A stretch of 64,000 bases of DNA from Candidatus Omnitrophota bacterium (GCA_903852325.1 CAINQO010000080.1:2732-66731); one strand, 5' to 3'. Shown: positions 44,048 to 59,112, counted from the first letter of the stretch. A program made the numbers and translations. Notes: generated by a model not told the origin, from the sequence alone.

Positions 44048-45046
44048 TTAAACCTTGATTTTTACTTCTCTAAATAAAGCGAACAGCCGAGTAAACGGCA
44101 CATACCATTTGGAAAGCTGTCCTAATTGACCGCTTAATTTCATTTTTCCCTGGGTCACCGCCACAAAAGAATCGAGTTTACCCAAAAATACCTGCTCCCA
44201 AACTGCAGGCGGCGCGCTGATCACAAAAGGGGCATCGGCGTCAAAATCAAGGCTGGCGATCCTGCCTTCTTCGAAATTAAATTTAAAAACGTTGACGCTT
44301 CCATCCAGCTTGATCGCCAGTTTTACGGTCAGCCCCAACGCTTTGCCTTTTTCGGCGATAAATGCATCCCGGTTCACTATATCCACGATCGCCTGGATAT
44401 GCTCCCGGCTGAACATCGTATAAACCGGTTCATCGCGTTTTAAATCATTTTTTAAAGCCGCGTCCAATTCATCCAAAACCTCTTTATCCCACAGCCGGGC
44501 GATGGCCGCGCTTTTGACCGCTTCCTCCAACGCTTCGGTGACCGCTAAAGCGTCTTTAAATTTATCCGCGATCGCCACCGTCCCGTGATTCTTCAACACC
44601 ACCAGGTTATTGGTTTTTAAAGCGGCGATCACCGGCGCGGGGTCGGTTACCGTCGGAGTTTCCTGGGGGATCACCGGGATCTCCCCCAGGTAAAACTTAG
44701 TCTCGAAACTCATCGCTTTAAGGTTTTTAGCTACCGCAAAATATCCGTTAATTAACGGCGGATGGCAGTGCACGACAACTTTGGCGCCGGAGTTTTTATA
44801 AACCAGGCTGTGCAAAGGCAGCTCCGAACTGGGCTTAGTTTCCCCGGAAAATTTACTGTCGGATAAATTTACTTTAACCAGATCGCCTTCCTTTAATTGC
44901 CCTAAAGCCGTGCCGGTAGCGGTGATCAGGATATTTTCCGCATCCAGGCGGCCGCTCAAATTCCCGGAGTTAGCTACCGCCAACCCTGTTTCATAAAGCC
45001 TTTTACCTACCTGAATAATTTCTAACCCCAATTCTTTTTCCGTCAT
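44048..45046 (-). CDS. class II aldolase/adducin-fold protein (MtnB-like dehydratase) fused to a C-terminal SCP2 sterol-carrier-like domain
   Basis: N-terminal GNLSGR...HCHPP metal-ligand pattern of class II aldolases. The C-terminal ~110 aa have an SCP2-like pattern (GKLDSFVAVTQGKMKLSGQL). Confidence 0.55.
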   Translation of the reverse strand: MTEKELGLEIIQVGKRLYETGLAVANSGNLSGRLDAENILITATGTALGQLKEGDLVKVNLSDSKFSGETKPSSELPLHSLVYKNSGAKVVVHCHPPLINGYFAVAKNLKAMSFETKFYLGEIPVIPQETPTVTDPAPVIAALKTNNLVVLKNHGTVAIADKFKDALAVTEALEEAVKSAAIARLWDKEVLDELDAALKNDLKRDEPVYTMFSREHIQAIVDIVNRDAFIAEKGKALGLTVKLAIKLDGSVNVFKFNFEEGRIASLDFDADAPFVISAPPAVWEQVFLGKLDSFVAVTQGKMKLSGQLGQLSKWYVPFTRLFALFREVKIKV

Positions 45047-45961
45047 TTACACTCCCAAATGAATATGCTTGGTAATTAAACACGCCGGCGTAACATCAAA
45101 AGCCGGGTAATAAGCTTTTACTTCTTTAGGGGCTAACCGCACGCCCTGATAAATTTTTAGCTCATCATCCGGCCGGATCTCGATTTGAATCTCCTGGCCG
45201 GTTTTCAATCTGGAAGGCGGAGGGCAAATCACAAAAAACGGGATTTTAAAATATTTCGCCACTACCGCGATCTGATAAGTCCCGATCTTATTGGCAATAT
45301 CCCCGTTTAAAGTCAAATGGTCGGCCCCGACAATGATTTTAGTCACTTTCCCCAGGGAAAGTAAATACGCCACCATATTGTCCGTAATGATCGTTACCTC
45401 AAATCCGGCGCGCATCAATTCCCAGGCAGTCAGCCGGGAACCCTGCAGATAAGGCCGGGTCTCAGTAGCGTAAAAGCTGACTGTCTTACCCTGCTCTTTG
45501 GCAATCTGAGCGATCAAGGGCAACAGGCCGCTGATATTACAGTGAGTAAGGATCACATCCCCGTCGCTAAGCAGCCCGGCGGTTTCTTTGGCCTGCTCAA
45601 TGCGTTTGGCCTTGAGCATCTCTAAAAATCCCAGAATGCTTTTCTCCAGGGGCGCCCCGCTCTTCTCCCATCCCAAAACCATATCGGTAAGGAACTTAAA
45701 GGAAAGGGTCGGCCGGGTAGCGTTGATCGCCGCGGCGACCTGGCTTAAATCTTTCTTCTGCCGCTTGCTCAACAGAAAGGTGTACATCACCAAAAGCACC
45801 TGCCCTACCGCGCGAGTCTTCATTTCTTTGATCGCCCGGCAGGCTTGCAAATAATTCCTGGCCTTTATATAGGTAAGTTTCTGCGGCAATTTCGTTTCAT
45901 CTAAAATATAAAGCGTATTGCCTTTTAACTGTATCGGCCAAAATAAGGGAGAGAATTTCAT
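45047..45961 (-). CDS. eIF-2B-family sugar-phosphate isomerase (methylthioribose-1-phosphate isomerase MtnA-like)
   Basis: GADHLTLNGDIANKIGTY...IPFFVICP signature of the MtnA/eIF2B family. Confidence 0.6.
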   Translation of the reverse strand: MKFSPLFWPIQLKGNTLYILDETKLPQKLTYIKARNYLQACRAIKEMKTRAVGQVLLVMYTFLLSKRQKKDLSQVAAAINATRPTLSFKFLTDMVLGWEKSGAPLEKSILGFLEMLKAKRIEQAKETAGLLSDGDVILTHCNISGLLPLIAQIAKEQGKTVSFYATETRPYLQGSRLTAWELMRAGFEVTIITDNMVAYLLSLGKVTKIIVGADHLTLNGDIANKIGTYQIAVVAKYFKIPFFVICPPPSRLKTGQEIQIEIRPDDELKIYQGVRLAPKEVKAYYPAFDVTPACLITKHIHLGV

Positions 45962-45983: not shown

Positions 45984-46733
45984 TCACTTTCCTTCTAATT
46001 TTTTAACTAAATCCAGGGCAATTTTAATTAAATTGCCTTCCGCCATATAATACAGCGGATTCATAAAACCCATTTCACCGGTAATCACATTATCACTTAC
46101 CGCTAATATCGAGCCGGCTTTGATATTGTAGGTCTGGCAAATGGTCAGCATCGTGGAAGAGACCATATCCACGGCCAGGGCGCCTTCCTTACGTTTGCCT
46201 TCCACCAGTTCCCGGGTCTCCCGCAATAAAGCGTCCGTAGTCCAGGCCTTACCGCGGTGCACATTTAAACCCATATCTTTAGCAATCTGGAAGAGAAGAT
46301 CAGAAATCTTCTTGTCGCTGATCGTCTTAAAATCCTTATCCACATAATACGGGGTCACTCCGTCGCCGCGGATCACTTCATCGACGACAAATAAATCCCC
46401 CACCTTAATATTTTCATCCATTGCCCCGCAGGTGCCCACGCGGATAATGTTCTGGATCCCCGCGTTGCACATGACTTCGGTGGTGATCGAGGTGTCAGTG
46501 GAAAATCTCCCGCCGTTAATCCCGGTGACCTTAATCCCCTCAAAGGTGCCAGTGTACATGGTGTATTCCATAAAAGAAAAATTCTTGATCGGGTTTTCCA
46601 GCTTTTTCATCAAAACATCCAGCCGGTCCCGGGGGCCGGGCACGATCGCGTACTTACCTACATCCTGAGGCCTTAACTGCACCATCGCGGTTAAATCTTT
46701 TCCCGTTAAATGAACATCTTTCTGCATTTGCAT
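45984..46733 (-). CDS. PNP/UDP family-1 nucleoside phosphorylase (purine/MTA phosphorylase-like)
   Basis: RVGTCGAM phosphate-binding block and the C-terminal AVDMVSSTML block of the DeoD/Udp/MtnP fold. 249 aa. Confidence 0.6.
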   Translation of the reverse strand: MQMQKDVHLTGKDLTAMVQLRPQDVGKYAIVPGPRDRLDVLMKKLENPIKNFSFMEYTMYTGTFEGIKVTGINGGRFSTDTSITTEVMCNAGIQNIIRVGTCGAMDENIKVGDLFVVDEVIRGDGVTPYYVDKDFKTISDKKISDLLFQIAKDMGLNVHRGKAWTTDALLRETRELVEGKRKEGALAVDMVSSTMLTICQTYNIKAGSILAVSDNVITGEMGFMNPLYYMAEGNLIKIALDLVKKLEGK

Positions 46734-46750: not shown

Positions 46751-47080
46751 TTACGCCCGGTACATAATGACGTTTGCTTTTTCCAATGTGATCAACCCCT
46801 CTTTAACCATACTGTCTAACTGCGGCAGGAACTGATTGATCTTCTCTTCGCTGTCCACAATCTCAATGATGATCGGCAGGTCTTCAGAAAGCCGCAATAA
46901 ATTAGCGGTGTGCATATGGCTTTTGCAGCCAAACCCCATAAACCCTTTGATCGCGGTTGCCCCGGCTAACCCGGTTTTTTTGGCCAAAAGAATGATTTCC
47001 TCATAAAGCGGCTTGCCGTTCCATTTATCAGCCTCCCCGATAAAAATCCTTAAAAGCTTGCCGTCCGCGGGTATCTTCAT
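46751..47080 (-). CDS. DUF190 (PII-like fold) protein, the usual partner of CrcB
   Basis: 109 aa with a LLRIFIGEADKW...GATAIKGFMGFG pattern. Its start overlaps the crcB stop. Confidence 0.7.
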   Translation of the reverse strand: MKIPADGKLLRIFIGEADKWNGKPLYEEIILLAKKTGLAGATAIKGFMGFGCKSHMHTANLLRLSEDLPIIIEIVDSEEKINQFLPQLDSMVKEGLITLEKANVIMYRA

Positions 47081-47451
47081 ATTATTTCTCCTAATAAACC
47101 ACCAATCCTGAATAATATAAGGCCCAAAACCACACTCACAAAAACATTGCTGAACGCGCGCATCGCCTGGCCGTTTTTCAGCAGGTTATCCGACTCAAAG
47201 ATCAAGGTCGAGAATGTCGTGAACGCACCGCAAAACCCGATCATTAATAGAATTTTAGCGTCCGGCCCAAGAATAAACTTTTTATCCGCTAAAGTAGCTA
47301 AAAACCCCAGGATAAAACATCCGCTGACATTGACCACCAGGGTTCCGTAGGGAAAACTTGTGCCGGCCAACCGATAAACAAAACCCCCTAATAAATACCG
47401 GGCAATTGTGCCGATCGAACCTCCGATAATTAAATTTAATAGTTTTATCAT
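47077..47451 (-). CDS. crcB: fluoride channel CrcB/Fluc
   Basis: 124 aa with four TM helices and the IGGSIGTIARY...GTLVVNVSGCFILG signature. Confidence 0.85.
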   Translation of the reverse strand: MIKLLNLIIGGSIGTIARYLLGGFVYRLAGTSFPYGTLVVNVSGCFILGFLATLADKKFILGPDAKILLMIGFCGAFTTFSTLIFESDNLLKNGQAMRAFSNVFVSVVLGLILFRIGGLLGEII

Positions 47452-47846
47452 ACTTTTTTAGCTAATTGCTTTTTTTCGAGTTTCTTAATTTGATCCCAAT
47501 TCCTGACGATCTGGCGTGCTGAGCTTACTTTAACCTTCCCAAAAACATGCGGGTGACGGCGTTTCAATTTCTTCACTAACCCATCAATCACATCCTCCAC
47601 ATCAAATCTGCCTGTTTTACTGGCGATCTGCGCATGAAACATTACCTGTAACAGAATATCGCCCAGCTCCTCCTGCATATTCGCCAGGTCGTTTTGCTTA
47701 ACGGCAAAGATAAATTCATCTACTTCTTCCCGCAGGTACTTTAGCAGTGTCTTGTGCGTTTGCTGCTTATCCCAAAGACAGCCATTGGGACCGTGTAGCG
47801 TTTGGAATAATTCTTTTAGCTCAATAAACTTAGTAGGCTTACTCAT
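47448..47846 (-). CDS. mazG: MazG-type nucleoside-triphosphate pyrophosphohydrolase (single-domain)
   Basis: Typical MazG EExxE/D acidic helices (LREEVDEFIFA...ELGDILLQV), the RRHPHVFG block and a length of 132 aa. Confidence 0.7.
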   Translation of the reverse strand: MSKPTKFIELKELFQTLHGPNGCLWDKQQTHKTLLKYLREEVDEFIFAVKQNDLANMQEELGDILLQVMFHAQIASKTGRFDVEDVIDGLVKKLKRRHPHVFGKVKVSSARQIVRNWDQIKKLEKKQLAKKV

Positions 47847-47976: not shown

Positions 47977-48888
47977 CTAAAGAGCAAATAACTTTCCCGC
48001 ATTCCCACCCAGGATGTTCTGTTTATCTTCCTGGGATAAATCTAAATCGTTAACCGCTTTGATCCCCGCGGCCACATCCTGCTTTGCCGGCCAGTCGCTT
48101 CCCCAAAGGATGCGTTTTGGCCCCATCAAATCTAAACTTAGCAAAAAATTGGCTTTAGTGGTATCTCCGCTGGTATCGACATAAATATTCTTGAAGTAAT
48201 CCGAGGGCAGTCCCTGCAGATCCTTAACAAAATTCATTTTGCGCAGCATCTGATAAGTTGCGTCGAAACGCTGTTTAAGATAGCAGATCGCCCCGCCGAA
48301 ATGGGCAAAAACAAATTTAACTTTCGGGTAGGTGCGGAAAATATCCGACATTAACAGCCTGCCTGCCGAAATCGTCGTATCGAAAACATATTCGATCACC
48401 GGGGTAAGCAGCGGGTCTTTTACTCGCTCATAGCCGATCGGGTTAACGATCTGGGAGTGCACGAAAACCGGCAGGTTCTTGCCTTGCGCTTCCTCATAAA
48501 CCGGCAGAAACATCTTATCGTCCAGGTAAATCCCGTTATAACTGGAAGCCAGAGACACCGCCTTAAATCCCAGCTCATCCGTCGCCCGATTCAATTCCTC
48601 CAACATATCGATGGAATTATCTACCGGCAGGACCGCCGCGCCGATAAACCGGTCCGGATATTTCTTTAAAATTTGGCCGACATTATCATTATAAAGATGG
48701 GCGACCTGGCTGATGCTCCCTAATTTTAAATGCGCGTCTGAGGTCGGATAGCTTAAGACCGCCCGCTGGATGCCGCTGGCATCCATGATCTTAAGCTGGG
48801 CTTCGATATCCCCCCAGCCCTTATGGAAAAAATGAGCGTTGGAGATTATCTCCTCCGGTAGCCAGTGGCTATGCGCGTCGATCAACAT
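47977..48888 (-). CDS. amidohydrolase-2 (TIM-barrel metal-dependent hydrolase/decarboxylase) family protein
   Basis: N-terminal IDAHSHW metal-ligand motif and conserved H/D positions of the ACMSD/LigI-type family. 303 aa. Confidence 0.6.
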   Translation of the reverse strand: MLIDAHSHWLPEEIISNAHFFHKGWGDIEAQLKIMDASGIQRAVLSYPTSDAHLKLGSISQVAHLYNDNVGQILKKYPDRFIGAAVLPVDNSIDMLEELNRATDELGFKAVSLASSYNGIYLDDKMFLPVYEEAQGKNLPVFVHSQIVNPIGYERVKDPLLTPVIEYVFDTTISAGRLLMSDIFRTYPKVKFVFAHFGGAICYLKQRFDATYQMLRKMNFVKDLQGLPSDYFKNIYVDTSGDTTKANFLLSLDLMGPKRILWGSDWPAKQDVAAGIKAVNDLDLSQEDKQNILGGNAGKLFAL

Positions 48889-49302
48889 TTAGTGGTCGGT
48901 GCTCCGTAAAATGCGCTTGGTCATTTCCTTTTCATAAAGCGCCTTGATCTGCGCCAGGAACCGGCGGCCGAATTCTTTAGCGATCAATTTTTCTATGGCA
49001 TTAAGCTTTACATCCAGGAAAATAAACTCGGTGTTGGTTTTTTGCCCCTTATATTTTAACTCCAGGCAGGCTTTTTCCTTGGCGGCGATATACTCCTGGA
49101 AATTATTCACGTGCTTTTCCAGCTCCGCTTTTTCATGCGGCAGATAAGCGCCCATAAGCGTATTTTCGATCTCCTGCAAAAGATCCTTATCGATATCCGT
49201 CTGGGTAAATTTGCGCTCGAATTTATCAAAAGCTTCTTTGGTAGTCTTGTACAACCAGATAAAGTAACGCTTCTTTAAATTCTTGGTGTCCTGATTATCC
49301 AT
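48889..49302 (-). CDS. hypothetical cytoplasmic protein (137 aa, helical)
   Basis: The ORF abuts the flanking genes with no gap. No recognisable motif. Confidence 0.35.
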   Translation of the reverse strand: MDNQDTKNLKKRYFIWLYKTTKEAFDKFERKFTQTDIDKDLLQEIENTLMGAYLPHEKAELEKHVNNFQEYIAAKEKACLELKYKGQKTNTEFIFLDVKLNAIEKLIAKEFGRRFLAQIKALYEKEMTKRILRSTDH

Positions 49303-49329: not shown

Positions 49330-49935
49330 TTACTTCTTGATCAACTCCACCGTATCAAAATAAAGGGTGCCCTTGGAAACGGGAAGCGGCTCAAACTGAA
49401 AGCTCTTGACCGGGAAATCGATCACCCCGTTTTTATCCGCATCCTGCGGCTGCCAATCGTCGCGGGCGATAAATTTATCAAAGCTCACTACGACCTTTTT
49501 CCATCCGGCAGTATCATCCTCGGTAATAAAACGGAACAGCTCTCCGCCGCTATCCTTAACGTCAAAAGCGATTTTAGCCTTGGAGTTGGTCCCGTAAACA
49601 TAAAAAGATATCCCGCTGTAATCCGTCCACTTGATCTCGGAGGGCTTCACCGTCCAGGTAGCATTTTTAGCATCCAGCCCTGAACCGCGGGCAATATACA
49701 TATAACCGCCACTCACCGCGTCATAAGCCGCCTTTAAGGACTGCTTGCCGGTATTTTTGATATCGGTAGCCGCGGTCACCTGCAAGCTGGAACCGTTGCC
49801 GGAACCAAAATCCACCGTGCCTTCGGCGCCGCCGGAAACCGCCATCTCAAAATCATCGAGTAAAAAATTATCCGCAAAACAAATCCCGCTTACCGCTAAA
49901 ATTAAAACTGCCGCGAGTAATCCTATCTTTTTCAT
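49330..49935 (-). CDS. secreted CIA30/CBM11-like beta-sandwich protein
   Basis: Signal peptide and strong RBS (TTAAGGAGAATAAAG). DDFE...W...ISFYVYG...WKKVVVSFDKF pattern of CIA30/CBM-like domains. Confidence 0.4.
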   Translation of the reverse strand: MKKIGLLAAVLILAVSGICFADNFLLDDFEMAVSGGAEGTVDFGSGNGSSLQVTAATDIKNTGKQSLKAAYDAVSGGYMYIARGSGLDAKNATWTVKPSEIKWTDYSGISFYVYGTNSKAKIAFDVKDSGGELFRFITEDDTAGWKKVVVSFDKFIARDDWQPQDADKNGVIDFPVKSFQFEPLPVSKGTLYFDTVELIKK

Positions 49936-50018: not shown

Positions 50019-50795
50019 CTATTTACCCGGGTGTTGCTGTTTAAACGGAATTACCGGCGCAGTCCAGGGGGTTTGCTGATTGATCACGGAAATCTCCAGA
50101 GGGCAGACATTGGCCGGCACGGTTAAAGCAAAACGCATCGCGTCTTCTATCGCCTCTGTCCCCATTAAACGGGAAGTATCGCTGGTAATGTCTTTAAGTT
50201 TACCGGTTAAATCCGTATCCGTCACTCCCGGCAGGATCGAAGTGACCTTGATCCCGTGGTCGCGCAGCTCCCAAAACAATCCTTTGGAAAAAGCGCGCAA
50301 CCCCACTTTCAGAGAGCTGTAAACAATAAAGTTTCTCGGGACCGGGTCGACCAGGGTGGAACCGGAAACGATATTAATGATTGCCCCGTATTTTTGCTCC
50401 ATCATATCATTGATCACCAGGCGGATCAGGCGCACATAACCCAGGTAATTGGTGTGCGCCAGCTTCTCAAAATCCTCGATCGGCTGCTGGTTAAAAGGAT
50501 ACTGGGAAGAAACTCCGGCACAGTTGATCAGAATATCCACCTTGCCGAACTTTGCCTTGGCTTTATTCACCAGGTTCTCTAAGTCTTCAAGCTTGGTCAC
50601 GTCGCAGGGAACCGGCAATACCTGGACTTTATATTTAGCGGCAATCTCCTCCGCTGTTTCTTTTAACGGGCCTTCACCGCGGGCGCCGACAACCAGGTTT
50701 ATTCCCAGTCCTGCCGCGGTGCAAGCCAAGGCTTTGCCGATACCGCGGCTGGCTCCGGTAACAATCGCTACACGTCCTTTTAAATCCGTGCTCAT
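50019..50795 (-). CDS. short-chain dehydrogenase/reductase, putative ketoreductase of the PKS-like cluster
   Basis: TGASRGIG Rossmann motif, catalytic YSSLK, and an AAGGAGGA RBS before the ATG at 50795 (the ORF-track start 50837 was trimmed). Confidence 0.8.
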   Translation of the reverse strand: MSTDLKGRVAIVTGASRGIGKALACTAAGLGINLVVGARGEGPLKETAEEIAAKYKVQVLPVPCDVTKLEDLENLVNKAKAKFGKVDILINCAGVSSQYPFNQQPIEDFEKLAHTNYLGYVRLIRLVINDMMEQKYGAIINIVSGSTLVDPVPRNFIVYSSLKVGLRAFSKGLFWELRDHGIKVTSILPGVTDTDLTGKLKDITSDTSRLMGTEAIEDAMRFALTVPANVCPLEISVINQQTPWTAPVIPFKQQHPGK

Positions 50796-50860
50796 TGAAT
50801 CCTCCTTGCGTAGAGACACACACCGGCGTAATTCCACTAAACGCCGGGTGTTGTAGAATA

Positions 50861-51295
50861 TTATTTAGCTGCTTCAATTACTTTCTTAAAGATCAGCAAG
50901 TTGTCCTTGGAATGCTTATTGATGAAACCCTCCACCTGCTCATCGGAAAACTTGGCTTTGCTGTCCATTTTAAAATGCTGGATCCAGGTTAATTCTATCC
51001 CGTCGGCCTTGGGAGTATAAAGCCAGATGATCTTCATGTATTCAAAGGGGAATTTCGGGTCGAAGCGTTCCGAATAAGTAAAATAATTCTCCTTGAATAA
51101 CAGCCTCCAGGAAATCCAGGATTTATCCTCATCGTCGGTAAGCCGGAAGGTGATTTTATTGTCTTCTTTTTTTACAATCTCGGCTTTCTTGTATTCAGCG
51201 CCGAATAACTCTGTCCAGCGCGGGATGTCATTGGAAATATTGAACACTAAATCGTACGGCGCGTTGATAATGATTGAATTACAGGTATGTCCCAA
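50861..51295 (-). CDS. SRPBCC-fold protein (polyketide aromatase/cyclase-dehydrase-like, polyketide_cyc2 type)
   Basis: IIINAPYDLVFNISNDIPRW start typical of SRPBCC cyclases. The start was reassigned to the TTG at 51295, preceded by a perfect AAGGAGG, which removes the 67-nt overlap with the upstream gene. Confidence 0.6.
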   Translation of the reverse strand: MGHTCNSIIINAPYDLVFNISNDIPRWTELFGAEYKKAEIVKKEDNKITFRLTDDEDKSWISWRLLFKENYFTYSERFDPKFPFEYMKIIWLYTPKADGIELTWIQHFKMDSKAKFSDEQVEGFINKHSKDNLLIFKKVIEAAK

Positions 51296-51309
51296 TTTAA
51301 CCTCCTTTA

Positions 51310-52110
51310 TTAATCCAACAAAGCCACTACCCTCGCCCAGGCAGCACCGGTATTTTTGATGCGAATGGGAAAACATTGGATCTTAAATCCGTAATCCGGA
51401 AGCTTTTCCAGGTTAGCCAGCCTCTCGATATGGATAAATTCTTTTTTGCGTCCAAAAAAATGCGCCGGGTAAAAAGTCTTCGGGTCCCTGGTTTTGAGGA
51501 ATTCGGCGAGCATAAAACGGTAGGGCCGGTCGATCCCCATCGTGTCCACGCCGAAGATTTTTATCCCCTGCTCCAAAAGATATTCTATCGCCGAAGGATC
51601 TACTCCGGGGTAATCCGAGAAATATTTCGGTTTGCCGTACAGCTTATCGGCGCCGGTATGCAGTAAAACAATATCTAAAGGTTTAAGCCGGTAATTTATT
51701 TTGGTTAAAGCTTCCCGGATATCCTGCTCTTTAATTACTTCATTGGGTTTTTTATGCCGCATATCCAACTTAACCCCCGGTTGGAAACAATATTCCAGGG
51801 GGATTTCGTCGGCGGTTTTAGAAGGGCGGTTCTCCGATTGGGAACCGTAATGAAAGGAATAATCCAGGTGCGTGCCGACATGCACCGGGGCGTGCACAAT
51901 TTCCAGGGAGAGGAATTCTTCGTCGGGCAGCTCTTCCTTTTTAATGATCCGCTTTCCCAGCGCGTATTTGATCTTACCGGAAAGGGTCTTGCCCATGATC
52001 ACCCGGTTAAACTTTTCCACCCCGGCTTTATGGGTTACCCTTTCGATCGCCACTTTATGCACTTCAAAGGCGGTCTCATCAATGGGTAAGCTCAAATCGA
52101 TTATGGTCAC
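51310..52110 (-). CDS. cyclase-family protein (PF04199; kynurenine-formamidase-like metal hydrolase / putative polyketide cyclase)
   Basis: HVGTHLDYSFHYG matches the HxGTHxDxPxH signature of the family. Confidence 0.7.
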   Translation of the reverse strand: MTIIDLSLPIDETAFEVHKVAIERVTHKAGVEKFNRVIMGKTLSGKIKYALGKRIIKKEELPDEEFLSLEIVHAPVHVGTHLDYSFHYGSQSENRPSKTADEIPLEYCFQPGVKLDMRHKKPNEVIKEQDIREALTKINYRLKPLDIVLLHTGADKLYGKPKYFSDYPGVDPSAIEYLLEQGIKIFGVDTMGIDRPYRFMLAEFLKTRDPKTFYPAHFFGRKKEFIHIERLANLEKLPDYGFKIQCFPIRIKNTGAAWARVVALLD

Positions 52111-52163: not shown

Positions 52164-52400
52164 TTACTTAGTTAATTTTTGGTCGATATTGCTGACAATA
52201 TCGTTGATCGTGCAGTTTTTGGTGATCTCTTTGGGGCTAAGCTTGACCCCGAAAGATTTTTCCAAAGCGATAACCGACTCCACCATTTCCGTAGAATCCA
52301 CCCCGATGCTGTCGATTAAAGTAGAGGCGTCTTTTAATTCCTCGATTTTTACTTTTAATAAATTGGCCAGCACTTCTTTTACTTTGTTTTTAGTGTCCAT
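52164..52400 (-). CDS. acyl carrier protein
   Basis: 78-aa acidic four-helix protein with a GVDSTE phosphopantetheine-attachment motif (GxDS). Confidence 0.7.
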   Translation of the reverse strand: MDTKNKVKEVLANLLKVKIEELKDASTLIDSIGVDSTEMVESVIALEKSFGVKLSPKEITKNCTINDIVSNIDQKLTK

Positions 52401-52443
52401 TAATCCTCCCTACCTACTCACTGCTATCTACCCGCTACTGTTG

Positions 52444-53904
52444 TTATATTTGCACTTCCCCCTTGGTCGCGGCGGCTTCCCATTTGCCTACCCCGGCCAT
52501 GACATCCTGGAAACAGAGCTTGGCCAAAGGATCGAAGTTGCTTTCCATGATCCGGTTGATCCTTCCGGGCTTGGAGAAAAACTCGCGCATGCACCAGGAA
52601 CCCAACCTGCCCAGGTCCTCGGTAGTCAGGTGGTCCGTGGGGATTACCGGATGCAGAAAATCCCACTGGCTGAAATCCACCTTTTTCGGGTCGATCCAGT
52701 GTTTCTTTAAAGCGATCCTCCACATCGGAGAATTCGGGGCGGGGGTCACGTAGCCGACCCACAACACATCCGGATCCACCTGGTCGGTAAATTCAAAACG
52801 CTGCTTAACGATCTCTTCGGTATCATAGTCAAACCCCATCATGATGTCAGCGACGATGGCGATGTCATTTCTCCTAAACATGGCGATGGTCTGCTTGATC
52901 TGGTCGATGGTAATACCTTTAGCGATCCTCTTTAACTCCGACTGCGTGGTGACTTCGATACCGAAAACCCCCATAAATAAACCCTGCTCCTTCATCAACG
53001 GCAGGATGGATTCGCAATTGACCCAGTCGATTGCCCGGCCCAAAGAAACCCATTTGATCGGGTTATTCGAAGCTTTTTTCAACTCGCAAAACTTTTGCAC
53101 TCTTTTGGGATCGACATTAAAATTATCATCCTGGATGACAACCACCTTAACCCCGTATTTGCGGTGCAGCAGGTTAAGTTCTTCCATTACCCTTTCCGGG
53201 GATTTAGCGCGCCATTTCAAAAAATCCGAAGGAGAGCGCGGGTCAAACTGGTCCCACTCATAACAAAAAGTACAGGCGGAAGGGCAGCCGCGGGAAGTAA
53301 CCATATCCACGAACGGCTTCCAATAAGTATGCCCGACATATTTATCCATCGGGAAAAGATCGTAGGCCGGAAGAGGAAGCTTGTCCAAATCTTCCATCAA
53401 CGGCTTATGCGGCCCCATGACGATCTGCCCGTCGATGCGGCTGGTGACCCCGCCCACATCTTTCAGTGGCGTATTTTTATCGATCGCCTCGATCAGGTCT
53501 CCGAATGATTCCTCTTCCCCCATGACCACAAAATCAACCGCGGGAATTTCTTCCAGGGTCGGCACCGGCATCGCCGAATACCATAAACCGCCCAGGATGA
53601 TCTTTGTCCTCGGCAGCGCTTTTTTGATCCCGATCGCCGCGTCCTTAAAATGCCGCAGCACCCCGTATCCGCCGTAACCGTGGAGCTGTTCACCCATCAC
53701 GACAATATCTGGGTTTTTCTCTTTGACCTGCTCGATCAACTGCTCCATAGGAATCTGGTCGGCTTTACCGTCGATAACCGCGACATCCTCATACCCTCTT
53801 TCCCGCACATAAGCCGCCCAATGGGCGTACAGCTGGTTTGGAGAACGGTGGATTCCATGGGTCGCCCAGGCACCTACTTTCGGCATTACAAATAAGATTT
53901 TCAT
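52444..53904 (-). CDS. cobalamin-binding (class B) radical SAM enzyme
   Basis: N-terminal B12-binding-like Rossmann region (MKILFVMPKVG...) and an SRGCPSACTFC CxxxCxxC cluster. 486 aa. Confidence 0.75.
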   Translation of the reverse strand: MKILFVMPKVGAWATHGIHRSPNQLYAHWAAYVRERGYEDVAVIDGKADQIPMEQLIEQVKEKNPDIVVMGEQLHGYGGYGVLRHFKDAAIGIKKALPRTKIILGGLWYSAMPVPTLEEIPAVDFVVMGEEESFGDLIEAIDKNTPLKDVGGVTSRIDGQIVMGPHKPLMEDLDKLPLPAYDLFPMDKYVGHTYWKPFVDMVTSRGCPSACTFCYEWDQFDPRSPSDFLKWRAKSPERVMEELNLLHRKYGVKVVVIQDDNFNVDPKRVQKFCELKKASNNPIKWVSLGRAIDWVNCESILPLMKEQGLFMGVFGIEVTTQSELKRIAKGITIDQIKQTIAMFRRNDIAIVADIMMGFDYDTEEIVKQRFEFTDQVDPDVLWVGYVTPAPNSPMWRIALKKHWIDPKKVDFSQWDFLHPVIPTDHLTTEDLGRLGSWCMREFFSKPGRINRIMESNFDPLAKLCFQDVMAGVGKWEAAATKGEVQI

Positions 53905-53917
53905 TTAATTCCTCCCT

Positions 53918-55147
53918 TTATACTTTCTCAACCACCAGCACTGAATTAATTCCTCCTCTACCGCGGGAAATAATCAAGGATTTGTTTACCTTATATTCTT
54001 TTGCTTCTTTAGCCACAAAATTCAGCCCGCTTGAAACCGGCTGGTCTAAATTCAATGTCGGCGGGACCAGGCCATACTCCATCACCTTTAAGGCAATGAT
54101 CATATCAACGGCTCCGGATGCCCCTAATAAATTACCGAACATGGATTTAGGGCAGCTGACGGGTATTTTCTTTAGGTTGTTTCCAAAAACCGATTCCAGC
54201 GCTTTGATCTCGGAATTATCCCAAAGCTCGACCGCTAATCCGTCCAAACTGATATAACCGATCTCTTCAGGATTGGCGGCGGCGTCATTCAGCGCCATCC
54301 TGATCGCCCGCGCCAGCTCTTTTCCGTCGGCAGCGCAGTTGATCCGGTCCACCCCGTCGCAGGAAGTGCCGTAACCGCTGATCAGCCCCAAGATCTTGGC
54401 GTTGCGGGATTGCACCCGCGCAATGTTCTCCATCACCACGATCCCGGCTCCCTCCCCGATAACAAAACCGCTGCGTTTAGAGTCAAAAGGCCGGTAAGCC
54501 CCCTGCGGATCCTGATTATTCTTCGAGAGGGTTCCATAAGTATTGCAGCACAACAGCGCGTAAGGAGTAACCGGGGCTTCCATTCCTCCGCCTAAGATCA
54601 TATTTAATTTATTTTTGGCTAAGACTTTCCTGGCATAACCTAAAGCCATCAGGGAGCTGGCCCGGTCACTGACCACGGTCTTACTAAATCCTTTAATTCC
54701 GTAATAAATAGAGACCTGCCCCTGGGGAGCCGCCGGAAACCAGGCGCTGGCCATGTAAGGAGAAACCCCCTCCCGGCCTTCCAGATAAAGGTCCCTTAAT
54801 TCGGTTTCGGCGTAAAGCCAGCCGCCGATGGCGTTTCCTAAAAATATTCCCACCAGATTGGGGTCTTCGTTCTTAATATCGATCCCGGCATCCTGCAACG
54901 CCGACTCGGCAGCGACTAAAGCCATGTGCGAAAAGGCGTCGATCTTTTTAAGCAGGCGCTCGGAGATATGGCTGTATTTTTCCAGGTCATCGATCTGCCC
55001 GGCGATATGCGAAGGGTAAAGGCTGGCGTCAAAACGGGTGATTTCTTTAATAAAGGAGCGGCCGCTTTTAATATTCGCCCAGAATTGCCGTTTTCCTATT
55101 CCTGAAGGGGTGACTACCCCGATCCCGGTTATAGCTATTTTTTCCAC
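53918..55147 (-). CDS. ketosynthase-fold protein lacking all three catalytic residues (chain-length-factor / KS-beta-like)
   Basis: KS fold throughout. The active-site Cys is replaced (VVSDRASSL instead of TACSS). The first His is Tyr (GYGTS) and the second His is Asn (KSMFGNLLGASGA). Confidence 0.7.
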   Translation of the reverse strand: MEKIAITGIGVVTPSGIGKRQFWANIKSGRSFIKEITRFDASLYPSHIAGQIDDLEKYSHISERLLKKIDAFSHMALVAAESALQDAGIDIKNEDPNLVGIFLGNAIGGWLYAETELRDLYLEGREGVSPYMASAWFPAAPQGQVSIYYGIKGFSKTVVSDRASSLMALGYARKVLAKNKLNMILGGGMEAPVTPYALLCCNTYGTLSKNNQDPQGAYRPFDSKRSGFVIGEGAGIVVMENIARVQSRNAKILGLISGYGTSCDGVDRINCAADGKELARAIRMALNDAAANPEEIGYISLDGLAVELWDNSEIKALESVFGNNLKKIPVSCPKSMFGNLLGASGAVDMIIALKVMEYGLVPPTLNLDQPVSSGLNFVAKEAKEYKVNKSLIISRGRGGINSVLVVEKV

Positions 55148-55217: not shown

Positions 55218-56480
55218 TTATCCACCGTACCTTTTGAAAACGATCGAAGAATGTATCCCGGAAAAACCGCTTGAGGTTTTCATGATCATATTCACTTTTT
55301 TGGCGATCGCCTGGTTCGGAATATAATACAAATCGCACTGCGGGTCTTTTTCCTCCTGGTTTATCGTCGGAGGCAGGATGTTTTTCTCAAAAATCATCGA
55401 AACAATGGTCATCTCCACGGCATTGGCCGCCGCCAGGGGATGGCCGATCATCGATTTCAGGGAGCTGATCGGCAGTTTGTAAGCGTAATCCCCGAAAATC
55501 GCCTTGTAAGCATTGGTTTCGAAAATATCGTTCATCCGGGTGCTGGATCCGTGGGCATTGATATAATCGATCTCCGTGGGCTTGACCCCGGAATCTTTTA
55601 GGGCCAAAGCAATGCAGGTTTCCATTGCCCGTCCGTCCGAAGGAAGGTCGGTCATATGAAAAGCGTTGCAGCTGGTGCCGAAACCTAAAATTTCACAATA
55701 GATCGGAGCGTTGCGTTTTAAGGCGTGGCTTAATTCTTCCAGGACTAAAATCCCCGCCCCTTCTCCGAGCACAAACCCGTCCCGCTTATTATCGAAAGGC
55801 CGGGAAGCTTTCTGCGGTTCATCATTATGTACGGAAAGGACATTGACCACATCAAAAGCCCCGAAGGTGATCGGGGTAAGCGGAGCTTCTGCCGCGCCGC
55901 AGATCATCACATCCTGCTCCCCGTCCTGGATACTCTCCAGGCCGAACCCCAATGAATCCGTGCCGGCGGTGCAGCCGGTAGAAATAGTATTGCAGCTTCC
56001 TTTTAAACCGAAACGCGCGCTTAACTCTATCGAGGGGGTATTAAACATCGCCGCATCATATAAATCCGGGCGGACCATCGCCGGATTGATCGGTTTTTTC
56101 CCGTCGTCGGTGACCAAAGCGAACTCTTCTTCCATGTATTTGGTGCCACAGATGGCATTAGCCAGGCAAACCCCGATCCGCTCGGGATCCTCTTTAGAGA
56201 AATCCAATTTGCTGTCTTCAACCGCCATTTTTCCGGCGGCCACCCCGAATTGCACGTAACGGTCCATGCGCATCGCCTCTTCATGGCTCAATCCCAGTTT
56301 AAAAGGATCGAAATCCCTGACCTCGGCGGCGATTTTAGTATTAAAAACCGAGACGTCAAAGCCGTCCACCCGGCGTATACCAGATTTTCCTCCGGAAAAA
56401 CCCTCCCAGGCGTTTTTCTTTCCGATGCCGTTGGGGGAGATCACCCCGATCCCCGTAACTACCACGCGTCTTTTTTCCAT
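55218..56480 (-). CDS. beta-ketoacyl synthase with an intact Cys-His-His triad (KS-alpha / FabF-like)
   Basis: TGCTAGTDS active-site Cys. The two catalytic His are in AHGSST and SMIGHPLAAA. 420 aa. Confidence 0.85.
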   Translation of the reverse strand: MEKRRVVVTGIGVISPNGIGKKNAWEGFSGGKSGIRRVDGFDVSVFNTKIAAEVRDFDPFKLGLSHEEAMRMDRYVQFGVAAGKMAVEDSKLDFSKEDPERIGVCLANAICGTKYMEEEFALVTDDGKKPINPAMVRPDLYDAAMFNTPSIELSARFGLKGSCNTISTGCTAGTDSLGFGLESIQDGEQDVMICGAAEAPLTPITFGAFDVVNVLSVHNDEPQKASRPFDNKRDGFVLGEGAGILVLEELSHALKRNAPIYCEILGFGTSCNAFHMTDLPSDGRAMETCIALALKDSGVKPTEIDYINAHGSSTRMNDIFETNAYKAIFGDYAYKLPISSLKSMIGHPLAAANAVEMTIVSMIFEKNILPPTINQEEKDPQCDLYYIPNQAIAKKVNMIMKTSSGFSGIHSSIVFKRYGG

Positions 56481-56496: not shown

Positions 56497-56622
56497 AATC
56501 CTAAATTCTAAATCCTAAACAAATCCAAAATCCAAAACTCAAATTTTCTAAACCGCCGTTTTGGGTTTTAAATTTAGAGTTTTGGGTTTGTTTAGAGTTT
56601 CGTGTTTAGAGTTTAGGGTTTT
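56497..56622. repeat. long AT-rich imperfect inverted repeat (~50-nt arms built from TCCTAAA/TCCAAAA-like units) between the tandem-domain gene and KS-alpha
   Basis: Left arm: ctaaattctaaatcctaaacaaatccaaaatccaaaactcaaattt. Right arm: aaatttagagttttgggtttgtttagagtttcgtgtttagagtttagg. The central loop contains ccgccg. Confidence 0.5.
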
Positions 56623-57218
56623 GTTTTATCCTCCTCTACTCTTTTGACTTTAAAAATAATATTGCCACCATCAGGGCAGGTCACCGTATCGATGGAATTC
56701 GGATCAGGCATGAAGAAAAACTTTGCCCCGAAATTCAGGGCGAACAGCGCCGGGAAAGCGGTGTGAAAAGCCGCCCCGCAGAATCCCGGGATGCATTTTA
56801 ACCCCTGGGTTTCCCATTTGTCCCCGACTTTATAGCCAAAAGCGCATTTGCCTTTGGCCTGGACCACCTCTAAAACCATTTTTTTAGGGTTAGGCCCCTT
56901 ATGATTGGGGTCGCGCGGCAATGCTTCCACTTTGCCTTGCTTATCCAGGATTTCGGCTTTAAATTCCAGCTTTCCTCCGTCCGGGCAGGTCACCAAAAGC
57001 GAACGCTGGTTGTCCCGGAACCCGAATTTTGCGCCGAAGCTTAAGGCGTAGGCAACCGGAAAAAGCGCGTGCGCCAGGCCGAGGCAAAAATGCTTGGGCC
57101 CGTGGGTGAAGTCTTCTAAAATGATCTCGTCCCCGATCTTGTAACCGTGGTAACATTCACCCATTACCTGGGTCACCGTAAGTTTTAGCCGCGGGAAGGG
57201 GGTTTTTACTTCATCCAT
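56613..57218 (-). CDS. protein made of two tandem ~95-aa Cys/His-containing domains (TIGR04076-like)
   Basis: The blocks G(E/K)C..GYK.GD, F(C/H)..A(F/L)..(AL)F.L.FGAKF and VTCPDGG..F recur in both halves. Confidence 0.4.
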   Translation of the reverse strand: MDEVKTPFPRLKLTVTQVMGECYHGYKIGDEIILEDFTHGPKHFCLGLAHALFPVAYALSFGAKFGFRDNQRSLLVTCPDGGKLEFKAEILDKQGKVEALPRDPNHKGPNPKKMVLEVVQAKGKCAFGYKVGDKWETQGLKCIPGFCGAAFHTAFPALFALNFGAKFFFMPDPNSIDTVTCPDGGNIIFKVKRVEEDKTKP

Positions 57219-57220: not shown

Positions 57221-58225
57221 TTACACCAGCTCCTTAGTCCTCTGGATCAATTCTTCTTTACTAAAAAACCGGTGCCCGGTTTCTACCTGGTGCACCATTT
57301 CCACCAAAACTTTATTTAAAGGCGCTTGCAGTTTGTTCTCCTCTGCCAGCCGCACGAACTCGCCGTTTAAGTAATCTATCTCGGTAACTTTACCGCGCAT
57401 AATGCTCTGCAGGATCGAGCCGTACAAGGGATCCTTGCTTAAATTATGCATCATCCCAGAGAAAATTTCCGCCGCGTGCTCGCTGGGCATGGTCGTAAAC
57501 TTGGTCAGGTTTTCGACCGGAAATCCGGGAAGGGAGACCAGATCAATACCGAGCTTATCGAAAATTTCAAAAGCCTCTTTCCAGATCGCGATGCTGATCC
57601 GGGCAATCGCAATATCCGCGAACACTTCCTGCATGCTCTTGCCAATGATCGCCGGCAAACAGTTGTTAGCGTTCACGAAGATCTTTAAATACTTCATCCC
57701 TTTAAGCTCCTGGGTGACCTGCGTGGAAAAAGCTTTATCCAGGAGCAGTCCGACGGAAAACATCTCCGGGGTGGGATGAGGGTTGAAAATGCTGCCCAAT
57801 ATCCAGTCCCCTTCGAAATTATGCACCACTTTGCCGCTTTCCAGGTTGGTGGCGCCGAACATCACAATACTGGAAATAATTTTTTCCGCCGGTAAATATT
57901 TAGCCGCCAGCTTGTCCGCCTGCACCCCGTTTTGCGTGGTCAGCAGCAGGGAGTTCTGGATCAGGTGCGCGCAATCGGAAAGCGCCCCCTCGATATCCTG
58001 GGTTTTCACGGTTAAAATTACCAGCTCCGGAAGATAGTTCAGGGTCTCGGAAATGCTTACCCGCACCAGATGGTTTCCGCGGACCCCGGAAATAGAGATC
58101 CCATGGTCATGGATGGCGTTCACGGTCGAGCCGCGGCCGACCAAAGTGACCTCTTCCCCTTTTTCCTTAAGATAACCGGCGACCAGGCAACCGATCGCTC
58201 CGCTTCCGATAACCGCGATGCGCAT
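57221..58225 (-). CDS. ketopantoate reductase (ApbA/PanE) family NAD(P)H oxidoreductase
   Basis: N-terminal MRIAVIGSGAIGCLVAGYL Rossmann motif and a C-terminal ApbA_C-like helical domain. 334 aa. Confidence 0.7.
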   Translation of the reverse strand: MRIAVIGSGAIGCLVAGYLKEKGEEVTLVGRGSTVNAIHDHGISISGVRGNHLVRVSISETLNYLPELVILTVKTQDIEGALSDCAHLIQNSLLLTTQNGVQADKLAAKYLPAEKIISSIVMFGATNLESGKVVHNFEGDWILGSIFNPHPTPEMFSVGLLLDKAFSTQVTQELKGMKYLKIFVNANNCLPAIIGKSMQEVFADIAIARISIAIWKEAFEIFDKLGIDLVSLPGFPVENLTKFTTMPSEHAAEIFSGMMHNLSKDPLYGSILQSIMRGKVTEIDYLNGEFVRLAEENKLQAPLNKVLVEMVHQVETGHRFFSKEELIQRTKELV

Positions 58226-58494
58226 TATTGTTTACCGTTTTTAGGATAACCGTATTTTTTGTAATCAAACCCGTTTTGCTCTAAGAGGCGCAGCATCATG
58301 CTGTAAAACGGGGAAGGGACATCCGAAAAAAAAGCCGCCACGACATCCTGTTCTCCCACCTCAGTGGCGCTGCGTTTGGCGGCCAGCTCGGCGGCCTTTT
58401 GCCGGACCACCGATTCAGTGATATGGCGGTGGAATACGGGAATTTTGGAGATCAATACCTTGAATTTATTTTCGGTTCCGGTTTCCCAGTTCAT
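58225..58494 (-). CDS. small PCP_red-like domain protein (resembles the C-terminal domain of protochlorophyllide reductase subunit B)
   Basis: W..KFKVLISKIPVFHRHITESVVRQKAAELAAKRSATEV..QDVVAAFF resembles the PF08369 pattern (KIPFFVR...E..AR..G...VT). Confidence 0.35.
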   Translation of the reverse strand: MNWETGTENKFKVLISKIPVFHRHITESVVRQKAAELAAKRSATEVGEQDVVAAFFSDVPSPFYSMMLRLLEQNGFDYKKYGYPKNGKQ

Positions 58495-58515: not shown

Positions 58516-58546
58516 TATAGTAAAATTTTACTATAATTTTAGTCAA
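58516..58546 (-). promoter_or_regulatory. sigma70 promoter (TTGACT-18-TACTAT) for the biosynthetic operon, overlapped by a perfect 20-bp palindrome (TATAGTAAAATTTTACTATA, 58516-58535) that is a candidate PadR operator
   Basis: -35 at 58546-58541 and -10 at 58522-58517 on the minus strand. An AAGAGG RBS lies upstream of the ATG at 58494. The palindrome covers the -10 and spacer. Confidence 0.55.
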
Positions 58547-58596
58547 GATAAACTCCTTTGTCAAGCAAATTATCCTGGAATTTGCCTATGGAAAAT

Positions 58597-59112
58597 TCAG
58601 ATTTTTTTAAGCAGGGAGCTCAAGAATGCGGACTCGGCGCGCAAAAGGCAAAGGTTATGCTCCATGATCCGCTGCAGGGGCAGCGAATTTTTTAATTCCC
58701 CGGTGGTAAACATCCGCTTGATCCCGGAAGATATCTTCGCCAGGATCTCCAGCCGTTTTTCCAGCCTGCGGCGGGCAAGCGCCGGCTGCAGAAAGCCCAG
58801 AAAATACAGGCTTAAATCGAGAGTAAACTGCGGGCGCTTAAAATCCAGGAGGTTCTTGTTCAGCAATACCTCAAACCGCTCCTTGCCTTTGGCGGTTAAA
58901 CAATAAACCAGCCGCGGCGGCCTTTTGCCTTTTTTCTCGACGCGCTTGGCAAGCAAACCTTTTTTTTCTAAGATTCTTAAGGGATAATATATCGATTTGA
59001 GCTGGACACCGGCGAACAGGGAAAGGATCTCCCGGACTTTAACTTTGATCTCGTAACCGTGTTTGGGGCTTTGACGCAAGAGGCCTAGAAGGATCAGCTC
59101 CTGATCGATCAT
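58597..59112 (-). CDS. PadR-family transcriptional regulator
   Basis: N-terminal winged-HTH [24 protein letters not shown]...[12 protein letters not shown] signature. Its start overlaps the accA stop by 4 nt. Confidence 0.75.

Follow-up and report, generated by a model that had tools for sequence, protein, structure and literature searches.

What does a radical S-adenosylmethionine (SAM) enzyme with a cobalamin-type domain do in the midst of a polyketide synthase (PKS) operon of an uncultured bacterium? The question is raised by a gene in a 64,000-nucleotide stretch of Candidatus Omnitrophota DNA (GCA_903852325.1, CAINQO010000080.1:2732-66731), which we refer to throughout as the window. A reading of this DNA from its sequence alone had described the gene as B12-binding radical SAM with a CPSACTFC cluster, lying between the chain-length factor (CLF) and acyl carrier protein (ACP) genes of a ketosynthase (KS) block, and had suggested that its product methylates or otherwise modifies the polyketide. 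Our analysis suggests that the enzyme represents a class-B subfamily so far without assignment, and that it belongs to an aromatic type II PKS operon which also encodes proteins predicted to process 5'-deoxynucleosides, a combination that appears to be new. The reading that we prefer, with a probability of roughly 45%, is an O2-independent radical tailoring of the aromatic polyketide in which the resulting 5'-deoxyadenosine is cleared by a co-encoded shunt.

The radical SAM enzyme and its family

The open reading frame (ORF) starts with an ATG 13 bases past the CLF stop codon, and an AGGGAGG Shine-Dalgarno sequence lies within those bases. Pfam places a B12-binding domain (PF02310) at residues 30-133 (E 2.2e-10; 40.8 bits against a cut-off of 32.1) and a Radical_SAM domain (PF04055) at residues 201-371 (E 1.3e-19). 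The CPSACTFC motif corresponds to C207-x3-C211-x2-C214, and all three cysteines are invariant in a 60-sequence alignment that reaches down to 26% identity. An AlphaFold2 model built on this alignment has a mean predicted local distance difference test score of 92.8 and a predicted template modeling (TM) score of 0.92. Its top fold matches in the PDB are AprD4, TsrM, TokK, MgmA, CysS and OxsB (query-normalized TM scores of 0.63-0.71), and the modeled N-terminal domain superposes on TsrM, TokK, OxsB and CysS. In a PDB sequence search AprD4 (6fd2) is the closest solved structure (E 7e-15, 19% identity), followed by TokK and CysS, and the fold match of AprD4 to the model has a TM score of 0.70-0.75. 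By sequence and model, then, the protein has class-B architecture, with an N-terminal cobalamin-type Rossmann domain and a [4Fe-4S]/SAM core. The sequence-only reading is thus upheld on this point by the Pfam domains, the invariant cysteines and the predicted fold, and the B12 domain is recognizable to a hidden Markov model above the gathering score. Across the enzyme family, conservation of the N-terminal domain equals that of the core; in the GGxH consensus stretch of the B12-like domain the His is replaced by Trp (GGLWYS). At Rfam gathering scores the window contains no cobalamin, SAM or fluoride riboswitch, and two tRNAs are the only hits.

In NCBIfam the protein falls below every curated cut-off. 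BchE (TIGR02026) is the best curated profile (208.3 bits against 481.35, over residues 3-431), followed by HpnJ (TIGR03471; 148.3 against 577.6) and ApyD (114 against 750). The ladderane-type model (TIGR04072) gives 70.9 bits against 360, the BzaD model 86 against 450, and the AprD4 family model 73 against 500, the last covering only residues 164-434, without the N-terminal domain. Among methyltransferase models, scores and cut-offs are 97/600 for PhpK and 102/575 for Sden_1168, both P-methyltransferases, 68/700 for KedN5, 85/650 for HpnR, 15/500 for the TsrM type, 62/360 for the methyl-coenzyme M reductase Gln methylase and 80/282 for C-methylases of ribosomally synthesized and post-translationally modified peptides; the Fom3 and GenK models are not among the families in the profile-library output. 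Membership in the BchE, HpnJ, ladderane-type or methylase families is accordingly rejected on the curated cut-offs. A housekeeping assignment, the outcome that the sequence-only reading had named as fatal to its proposal, is rejected as well: RimO (23 bits against 357), MiaB/RimO (18.6 against 251) and MtaB (17.6 against 357) all stay at or below 23 bits against cut-offs above 250, and there is no HemN match. BchE, HpnJ and ApyD, the top three profiles, and AprD4, the closest structure, are not known to be methylating enzymes.

The family has a sharp boundary: among 1.8 billion library representatives, identities run 46, 44, 38, 38 and 35% and then fall to a generic ~30%; a 90%-clustered database holds more than 120 clusters at 72-95% identity which, where named, are nearly all Candidatus Omnitrophota. 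We suggest that these proteins form an unassigned class-B subfamily that could receive its own model.

The polyketide genes, the nucleoside series and their conservation

The operon occupies positions 40874-58494 on the minus strand (~17.6 kb; Table 1). Its KS keeps Cys170, His310 and His347, conserved in 99 orthologues, and is by this triad predicted to be an active ketosynthase. The partner protein has lost the triad; its orthologues carry Arg (106) or Lys (4), Asp (110) and Asn (106) at the three positions, and it matches the actinorhodin CLF (1tqy_B) at 258 bits, compared with 222 bits for the actinorhodin KS. Both proteins still match the FabF profile, the KS at 462 bits and the CLF-like partner at 364 bits. 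The Arg, or rarely Lys, at the catalytic Cys position of the CLF may affect how the synthase is primed. The placement given by the sequence-only reading is confirmed, with the KS and triad-less CLF genes upstream of the radical SAM gene and the ACP gene downstream. PDB matches of the SRPBCC protein are exclusively aromatic polyketide aromatase/cyclases (ARO/CYCs); its true start is probably downstream of 51376, given the ORF overlap with the cyclase gene. Isatin hydrolase is the top PDB sequence match of the PF04199 cyclase, and the Amidohydro_2 protein resembles non-oxidative decarboxylases of hydroxy-aromatic acids such as LigW, a 5-carboxyvanillate decarboxylase. With an adjacent Cys-His-His KS and triad-less CLF, a dedicated ACP and a TcmN/WhiE-type ARO/CYC, the operon is predicted to encode a genuine aromatic type II PKS set, in a lineage of anaerobes.

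The downstream half of the operon holds an unexpected series, which the sequence-only reading had missed although it is the most informative part of the setting. Published 5-deoxyribose disposal uses a phosphorylase or kinase, an MtnA paralogue and a class II aldolase (PMC6079011), and in the window genes with PNP_UDP_1, TIGR00524 and Aldolase_II matches stand side by side, the gene set of this pathway, also known as the dihydroxyacetone phosphate (DHAP) shunt. As judged from family likeness, the first three predicted steps of the series match 5-deoxyribose/DHAP-shunt logic. The phosphorylase matches uridine phosphorylase (UP), the DeoD purine nucleoside phosphorylase (PNP) and the S. solfataricus methylthioadenosine (MTA) phosphorylase 1jds in the PDB, and HpnG weakly (47 bits, cut-off 187). 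PDB matches of the aldolase are FucA-type aldolases, with 6btd at 58 bits comparable to the others; its SCP2-like domain is kept in 58 of 61 loci, in all cluster types, and a homologue search with the fused protein returned close Omnitrophota orthologues only. The aldehyde dehydrogenase (ALDH) gene follows the aldolase gene in 24 genome loci and in operons free of PKS genes. The ligase scores 438 bits with PRK06187 (cut-off 476) and 251 bits with acetate-CoA ligase (cut-off 729).

Table 1. Predicted features of the operon and its flanks, in window coordinates (E, expect value; aa, amino acids).
Feature	Position	Strand	Basis
AMP-forming acyl-CoA/ACP ligase, long-chain-fatty-acid type, last operon gene	40874..42394	-	AMP-binding E 6e-85
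NAD(P)-dependent aldehyde dehydrogenase	42416..43900	-	Aldedh E 3.5e-168
Class II aldolase fused to C-terminal SCP2-like domain	44048..45046	-	Aldolase_II E 1.2e-35, SCP2 E 1.7e-5
MtnA-like (IF-2B family) sugar-1-phosphate isomerase	45047..45961	-	TIGR00524 202 bits (cut-off 186); MtnA profiles 222-238 bits
Nucleoside phosphorylase, PNP_UDP_1, hexameric UP/DeoD type	45984..46733	-	Pfam E 1.2e-32
Variable inserts DUF190, CrcB fluoride channel, MazG	46751..47846	-	Pfam
Amidohydro_2 protein, LigW-type decarboxylase-like	47977..48888	-	PDB LigW E 6e-29, gamma-resorcylate decarboxylase E 5e-23
Conserved 137-aa protein	48889..49302	-	No Pfam or NCBIfam match; collinear in 55/80 loci
Secreted CBM11-like protein, variable insert	49330..49935	-	CBM_11 E 2.8e-18
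Short-chain dehydrogenase/reductase (SDR), ketoreductase-like	50019..50837	-	adh_short E 9e-51 and KR domain; 3-ketoacyl-ACP reductase profiles best
SRPBCC aromatase/cyclase, TcmN/WhiE type	50861..51376	-	WhiE 3tvr E 2.6e-24, TcmN 2rez E 7e-23
PF04199 'putative cyclase', metal-dependent cyclase/hydrolase fold (Zn cyclase)	51310..52110	-	Pfam Cyclase E 9e-32
ACP, 78 aa, GVDS motif	52164..52400	-	PP-binding E 1.9e-9; GGGAGG Shine-Dalgarno ahead of ATG
B12-binding-domain radical SAM enzyme	52444..53904	-	486 aa; Pfam B12-binding and Radical_SAM
CLF-like inactive KS partner	53918..55147	-	Pfam ketoacyl-synt; triad Cys to Arg, His to Asp, His to Asn
KS, FabF-like	55218..56480	-	Pfam ketoacyl-synt N and C domains
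Tandem TIGR04076 repeat protein, Cys-rich	56613..57218	-	Six invariant Cys
Ketopantoate-reductase-family (ApbA/PanE) NAD(P)H oxidoreductase	57221..58225	-	ApbA and ApbA_C; TIGR00745 173 bits (cut-off 141)
First operon gene, 89 aa, weakly DUF2621/PCP_red-like	58225..58494	-	Pfam E 2.3e-5 and 1.1e-3, both below cut-off
Candidate sigma-70-like promoter TTGACA-17-TAAAAT	58536..58564	-	11/12 positions, best site in scan; consensus match only
PadR-family regulator directly upstream of operon	58597..59112	-	PadR E 3.9e-14
Second B12-binding radical SAM gene, C-terminal 81 codons	63754..64000	-	Full gene L004:11651-13051 (-), 466 aa

When one genome per GTDB species was scanned, a relative of the radical SAM enzyme turned up at 230 loci, of which the best 80 were compared. 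All 80 belong to Candidatus Omnitrophota metagenome-assembled genomes, some of them deposited as 'uncultured Planctomycetales', and tblastn with the window proteins recovered the same gene order in every one, as far as the contigs reach. Median identity over these loci is 91% for the radical SAM protein, 86% for TIGR04076, 84% for the KS and 80% for the neighboring AccA. Among the core genes, the radical SAM gene ranks first in conservation in 71 of 76 loci, a margin inflated by the choice of the 80 loci for similarity to this very protein. It is also among the most conserved genes in loci from a different query (L165, L167) and on a Thermodesulfobacteriota contig (77% identity) that keeps the whole gene order and adds MarR, MMPL and major facilitator superfamily (MFS) genes. 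The sequence-only reading had called such enzymes uncommon partners of type II PKS clusters; this stands for the characterized literature, but in this lineage, with about 230 genome loci, the pairing is the rule.

More distant relatives, sampled as 80 metagenome loci from another query (P0122) together with contigs of the nearest representatives, show how the gene set is rearranged. Their enzymes fall into four clades with mean identities of 73%, 54%, 44% and 39% to the window clade, and relatives at 36-61% identity have the same partners in other gene orders, with the PKS sometimes absent. The radical SAM gene may stand first, followed by the 89-aa, ApbA, TIGR04076, KS, CLF and ACP genes and onward; last, behind the decarboxylase gene; behind the SDR or cyclase gene, as in orthologues at 72-74% identity; or behind a ligase-PNP-isomerase-aldolase-ALDH series. 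Compact PKS-free operons of overlapping genes read MMPL-radical SAM-PNP-isomerase-155 aa-aldolase_SCP2-ALDH-DUF1329-DUF1302-ligase, sometimes with a UbiE-type methyltransferase, and those on L110, L112, L114, L128, L088 and L095 have no KS, CLF or ACP gene in up to 21 kb of DNA. A further locus, L089, adjoins carbon monoxide dehydrogenase/acetyl-CoA synthase genes. Transport genes (MMPL, DUF1329, DUF1302, MFS) recur in the related operons, and the MMPL proteins have sterol-sensing-domain matches.

Among the 48 loci of at least 8 kb, KS/CLF genes occur in 26, the nucleoside series in 18, both in 11 and neither in 15; most of the last group consist of a radical SAM gene paired with a TetR regulator. 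In ten loci (L130, L131, L134, L141, L142, L145-L148 and L150) the radical SAM genes share 58-61% identity with the window enzyme; the usual partner genes are absent within 10 kb, and only a TetR-family regulator gene stands ahead. L093 (Ca. Omnitrophota, GCA_040753015.1, 1-21446) is a variant cluster that contains a B12 radical SAM gene ahead of the 89-aa gene and another behind the decarboxylase gene. It further encodes a 440-aa protein of no family, a molybdoenzyme of the xanthine-dehydrogenase type with FAD, 2Fe-2S and Mo subunits, XdhC and proteins for molybdenum cofactor biosynthesis; the second radical SAM gene and the molybdoenzyme fit an O2-independent oxidative tailoring. The position between CLF and ACP was rejected as a sign of an ACP-bound substrate, given the orthologues behind the SDR or cyclase gene and the distant relatives in first or last place. 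What is constant is the association of the enzyme family with the PKS set, the nucleoside series, or both.

Possible chemistry and its alternatives

In the reading that we prefer, the enzyme would cleave SAM to a 5'-deoxyadenosyl radical, which would enable an O2-independent C-H functionalization of an ACP-bound or already cyclized polyketide, a tailoring step for which aerobes would use oxygenases or ordinary methyltransferases. 5'-Deoxyadenosine, formed stoichiometrically as a by-product, would be taken by the phosphorylase, isomerase and aldolase to DHAP and acetaldehyde, as in the DHAP shunt, and the aldehyde dehydrogenase and ligase would salvage the C2 unit. Because the related operons carry MMPL, DUF1329, DUF1302 and MFS genes, the product is probably a hydrophobic phenolic compound. 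As to the tailoring itself, we lean tentatively to BchE/HpnJ-like oxidative or C-C bond chemistry, slightly ahead of cobalamin-mediated C-methylation, because methylation is not known from the nearest curated families or the nearest structure, because polyketide alpha-carbons need no radical methylation, and because an anaerobe is without oxygenases for quinone or hydroxyl formation. BchE, the anaerobic Mg-protoporphyrin IX monomethyl ester cyclase, performs an O2-independent oxidative ring closure beside a beta-keto ester, a setting chemically close to a poly-beta-keto thioester, and has the same layout of B12 domain and radical SAM core; on the other side, the window enzyme scores less than half of the BchE cut-off of 481, and no chlorophyll genes were found among the annotated window ORFs.

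Several observations weigh against this combination of tailoring and disposal. Cobalamin binding is predicted from the domain match alone, and the B12-like domain of AprD4, the closest solved structure, is not known to bind cobalamin. Ordinary SAM methyltransferases are the usual means of methylating polyketide alpha-carbons, which are nucleophilic, and the need for a radical is therefore not self-evident. Pure salvage would leave unexplained the SCP2-like domain kept in nearly all aldolases (58 of 61 loci), a ligase of long-chain type in place of an acetate-CoA ligase, and the compact PKS-free operons, which contain little besides the radical SAM gene, the series and transport genes for hydrophobic compounds. 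At least three further radical SAM genes lie in the window, and a shunt dedicated to one of them therefore needs a reason, such as high flux. The way in which the 80 loci were selected has to be held against the conservation argument in the same way.

Methylation of the ACP-bound chain or the aromatic product by a cobalamin-dependent C-methyltransferase is the proposal that stood foremost in the sequence-only reading. Most characterized class-B enzymes are methyltransferases, as are the structural neighbors TsrM, TokK, MgmA and CysS, and the location of the gene between CLF and ACP recalls the carrier-tethered or pantetheinylated substrates of CysS and TokK (PDB entry titles). This location carries no meaning, however, when orthologues at 72-74% identity sit elsewhere in the operon; no methyltransferase model was approached, the three leading curated profiles and AprD4 describe non-methylating enzymes, and some related operons have a separate UbiE-type methyltransferase. 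We consider the methylation proposal less likely than not. AprD4 invites a different comparison, in which the enzyme would be cobalamin-independent, its N-terminal domain a structural relic, and its reaction a dehydration or other 1,2-shift. That AprD4 leads the PDB matches by both sequence and fold is consistent with this, as is the Trp in place of the GGxH His. The B12-binding match nevertheless passes the Pfam gathering score, the AprD4 profile stops short of the N-terminal domain, and that domain is as conserved as the core; AprD4 itself, a radical SAM 1,2-diol dehydratase at 19% identity, belongs to aminoglycoside biosynthesis. We judge a loss of cobalamin dependence improbable.

The main alternative to tailoring with disposal is that the nucleoside series is biosynthetic. 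In such a route the radical SAM enzyme would make or modify a 5'-substituted 5'-deoxyadenosine, either by letting the 5'-deoxyadenosyl radical add to a hydrophobic substrate at an sp2 carbon, in the manner of HpnH and MqnE, or by cobalamin-dependent methylation of C5'; the phosphorylase would remove adenine, the isomerase and aldolase-SCP2 would release DHAP and X-CH2-CHO, and the dehydrogenase would yield X-CH2-COOH. The long-chain-type ligase would activate this acid, which could then prime the KS/CLF pair or, in operons free of PKS genes, serve another end. The gene order in the window (PNP-IF2B-aldolase-ALDH-ligase) is the proposed order of reactions, the series abuts radical SAM relatives of four clades, including those in compact PKS-free operons, the aldolase has its conserved SCP2-like domain of lipid-binding type, and the ligase belongs to the long-chain type. 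The CLF carries Arg instead of the Gln used for decarboxylative priming, which makes a supplied starter acid plausible, and the weak matches of the phosphorylase to HpnG and of the enzyme to HpnJ point the same way. Precedents for the use of 5'-substituted adenosines are the futalosine pathway, adenosylhopane formation (HpnH/HpnG) and the chloroethylmalonyl route to salinosporamide. In the fluoroacetate pathway, 5'-fluorodeoxyadenosine passes through a phosphorylase, isomerase and aldolase to fluoroacetaldehyde (PMC6079011). With X = H, on the other hand, the gene set amounts to no more than the established DHAP shunt, the phosphorylase belongs to the generic UP/DeoD type, relatives in 15 of the 48 longer loci have neither module nearby, and the argument is one of gene neighborhood only. 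We know of no B12-domain radical SAM enzyme that forms adenosyl adducts, and HpnH and MqnE are without a B12-binding domain. We rate this route as quite unlikely, a shade below methylation; if true, it would be a new O2-free way to PKS starter units or functionalized hydrophobic molecules, and the enzyme would be the first of the B12-domain radical SAM type to work via a nucleoside intermediate.

Of the published systems the closest, and a precedent for the pairing, is 'Cluster I' of anammox bacteria (KustE3603-3608), a candidate ladderane cluster (bioRxiv 10.64898/2026.05.19.726425). Like the window operon it comes from an anaerobic host of the Planctomycetes-Verrucomicrobia-Chlamydiae superphylum and combines a FabF-like KS and a triad-less paralogue, arranged as a KS/CLF-like heterodimer, with a dedicated ACP and a cobalamin radical SAM gene. 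This shared set, and the FabF-like character of both KS genes, would allow a ladderane-like or other unusual fatty-acid pathway in Omnitrophota. We regard such a pathway as very improbable: TIGR04072 gives 71 bits against 360, the operon has neither the FabZ nor the phytoene-dehydrogenase (desaturase) homologue of Cluster I, and it has the TcmN/WhiE-type aromatase, second cyclase and aromatic-acid decarboxylase that Cluster I is without. The inactive partner also differs, with Val or Thr at the Cys position in the anammox protein and Arg in Omnitrophota.

The actinobacterial act, tcm and whiE systems share the Cys-His-His KS, a triad-less CLF (the window protein being nearer the act CLF), an ACP and mono-domain TcmN/WhiE-like ARO/CYCs. 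The window system differs from them in its still FabF-like KS genes, in the CLF Arg where classical CLFs carry Gln, in its uncultured anaerobic host, in radical SAM tailoring in place of oxygenases, and in the presence of an acyl ligase and a nucleoside series. The hopanoid HpnJ/HpnG/HpnN system offers a precedent for a lipid with a SAM-derived ribosyl unit, and the likeness extends from HpnJ as second-best profile and the weak HpnG match to the MMPL genes of related operons, HpnN being an MMPL-type exporter. Scores are far under the cut-offs (578 for HpnJ, 187 for HpnG), however, and the annotated genes include no hopanoid genes, among them squalene-hopene cyclase and HpnH; hopanoid pathways are moreover without the isomerase and aldolase, by which the ribose would be cut away in the window operon. 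In cispentacin biosynthesis AmcF/AmcG, with AmcH and AmcB, form a KS/CLF-like heterodimer system that acts on a starter acid loaded onto an ACP by an adenylating enzyme. Partial profile matches link the window proteins to AmcF (169 bits against 325) and AmcB (28 against 80), both below cut-off; that system, which makes a five-membered ring, includes neither aromatase nor radical SAM enzyme. With the DHAP shunt (MtnP or DrdK, MtnA/DrdI, Ald2/DrdA) the window shares the grouping of phosphorylase, MtnA-paralogue and class II aldolase genes, and with the fluoroacetate pathway an aldehyde dehydrogenase following the aldolase (PMC6079011). In contrast to the shunt, the window aldolase has an SCP2-like domain, the phosphorylase is of UP/DeoD and not MTA phosphorylase type, and the set is joined to a PKS/radical SAM operon that ends in a long-chain-type ligase. 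A CLF catalogue lists Omnitrophica KS-CLF pairs with no function given (PMC10132072), and a 2026 preprint about how aromatic KSs evolved makes no mention of Omnitrophota lineages; in the literature searched we found no published description of an Omnitrophota PKS/radical SAM operon.

The operon in its genomic setting

The operon begins with the 89-aa gene, which resembles, weakly, the PCP_red family, the C-terminal domain of protochlorophyllide reductase subunit B. This gene is always paired with the ApbA-like gene and comes directly after the radical SAM gene in the layouts in which the latter stands first (L086, L093, L108). For the TIGR04076 protein we found no functional literature. The CBM11-like protein, with a signal-peptide-like N-terminus, is encoded in 39 of 80 genomes and is absent from the Thermodesulfobacteriota version. 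CrcB and DUF190 genes occur at the same spot, between decarboxylase and phosphorylase, in 10 of 80 loci, and MazG in 1 of 80. A CrcB fluoride exporter beside the phosphorylase-isomerase-aldolase-ALDH series recalls the fluoroacetate pathway; no fluorinase homologue was found among the annotated window genes and no fluoride riboswitch by Rfam, and the juxtaposition is probably a coincidence. Upstream, the candidate promoter sits between the PadR gene and the first operon gene, and the PadR gene is kept in this position in 27 Omnitrophota loci.

Past the last operon gene come RlmN, a GDSL lipase and tRNAs, and the rest of the window is housekeeping in character (SecA, release factor, UvrC, MurJ, Lnt, leucyl-tRNA synthetase, ComEC) with an even GC content. 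These surroundings and the uniform GC indicate a core-genome locus, and a horizontal island is unsupported, with SecA, release factor, UvrC, MurJ, leucyl-tRNA synthetase and RlmN genes around the operon.

The sequence-only reading had also noted a class-B-like C-terminal tail entering the window at 63754, and this could be followed on contig L004, which shares 11,897 bases with the window at 100% identity and contains the full gene. The encoded protein has B12-binding and Radical_SAM domains and a CFGECVFC motif, scores 223 bits with HpnJ and 188 bits with BchE, both below cut-off, and is 28% identical to the first enzyme; two large tetratricopeptide repeat (TPR) proteins (641 and 707 aa) follow it. 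Its membership in the cluster was rejected on this low identity, on the TPR neighbors and on the five unrelated genes between it and the operon (AccA, LysM/YkuD, DUF212, hypothetical and ComM-like). An AmmeMemoRadiSam-system radical SAM enzyme at 4349-5386 (minus strand; 344 bits against 220) and RlmN at 39816-40844 bring the total in the window to four radical SAM genes. An MtnX-like HAD-IB phosphatase gene at 3370-4041 (minus strand; 104 bits against 82) adjoins a class III aminotransferase gene at 1961-3373 (minus strand).

A conserved, collinear locus amid housekeeping genes speaks more for a molecule of core physiology than for an antibiotic made on occasion; it could be a phenolic lipid of the membrane or envelope, or one that is redox-active. 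Omnitrophota are a large, uncultured and mostly anaerobic phylum of which little specialized metabolism is known. Aromatic type II PKSs are rare outside actinobacteria and rarer in strict anaerobes, and the O2-free tailoring of their scaffolds is largely unexplored, so that a phylum-wide anaerobic aromatic PKS paired with a radical SAM enzyme and a nucleoside series would surprise a specialist. The repeated link between this enzyme subfamily and the nucleoside series can be read in two ways: as disposal of a by-product for a single radical SAM pathway, which would be the first clear case of its kind, or as a biosynthetic role, new in type, for the adenosyl moiety of SAM.

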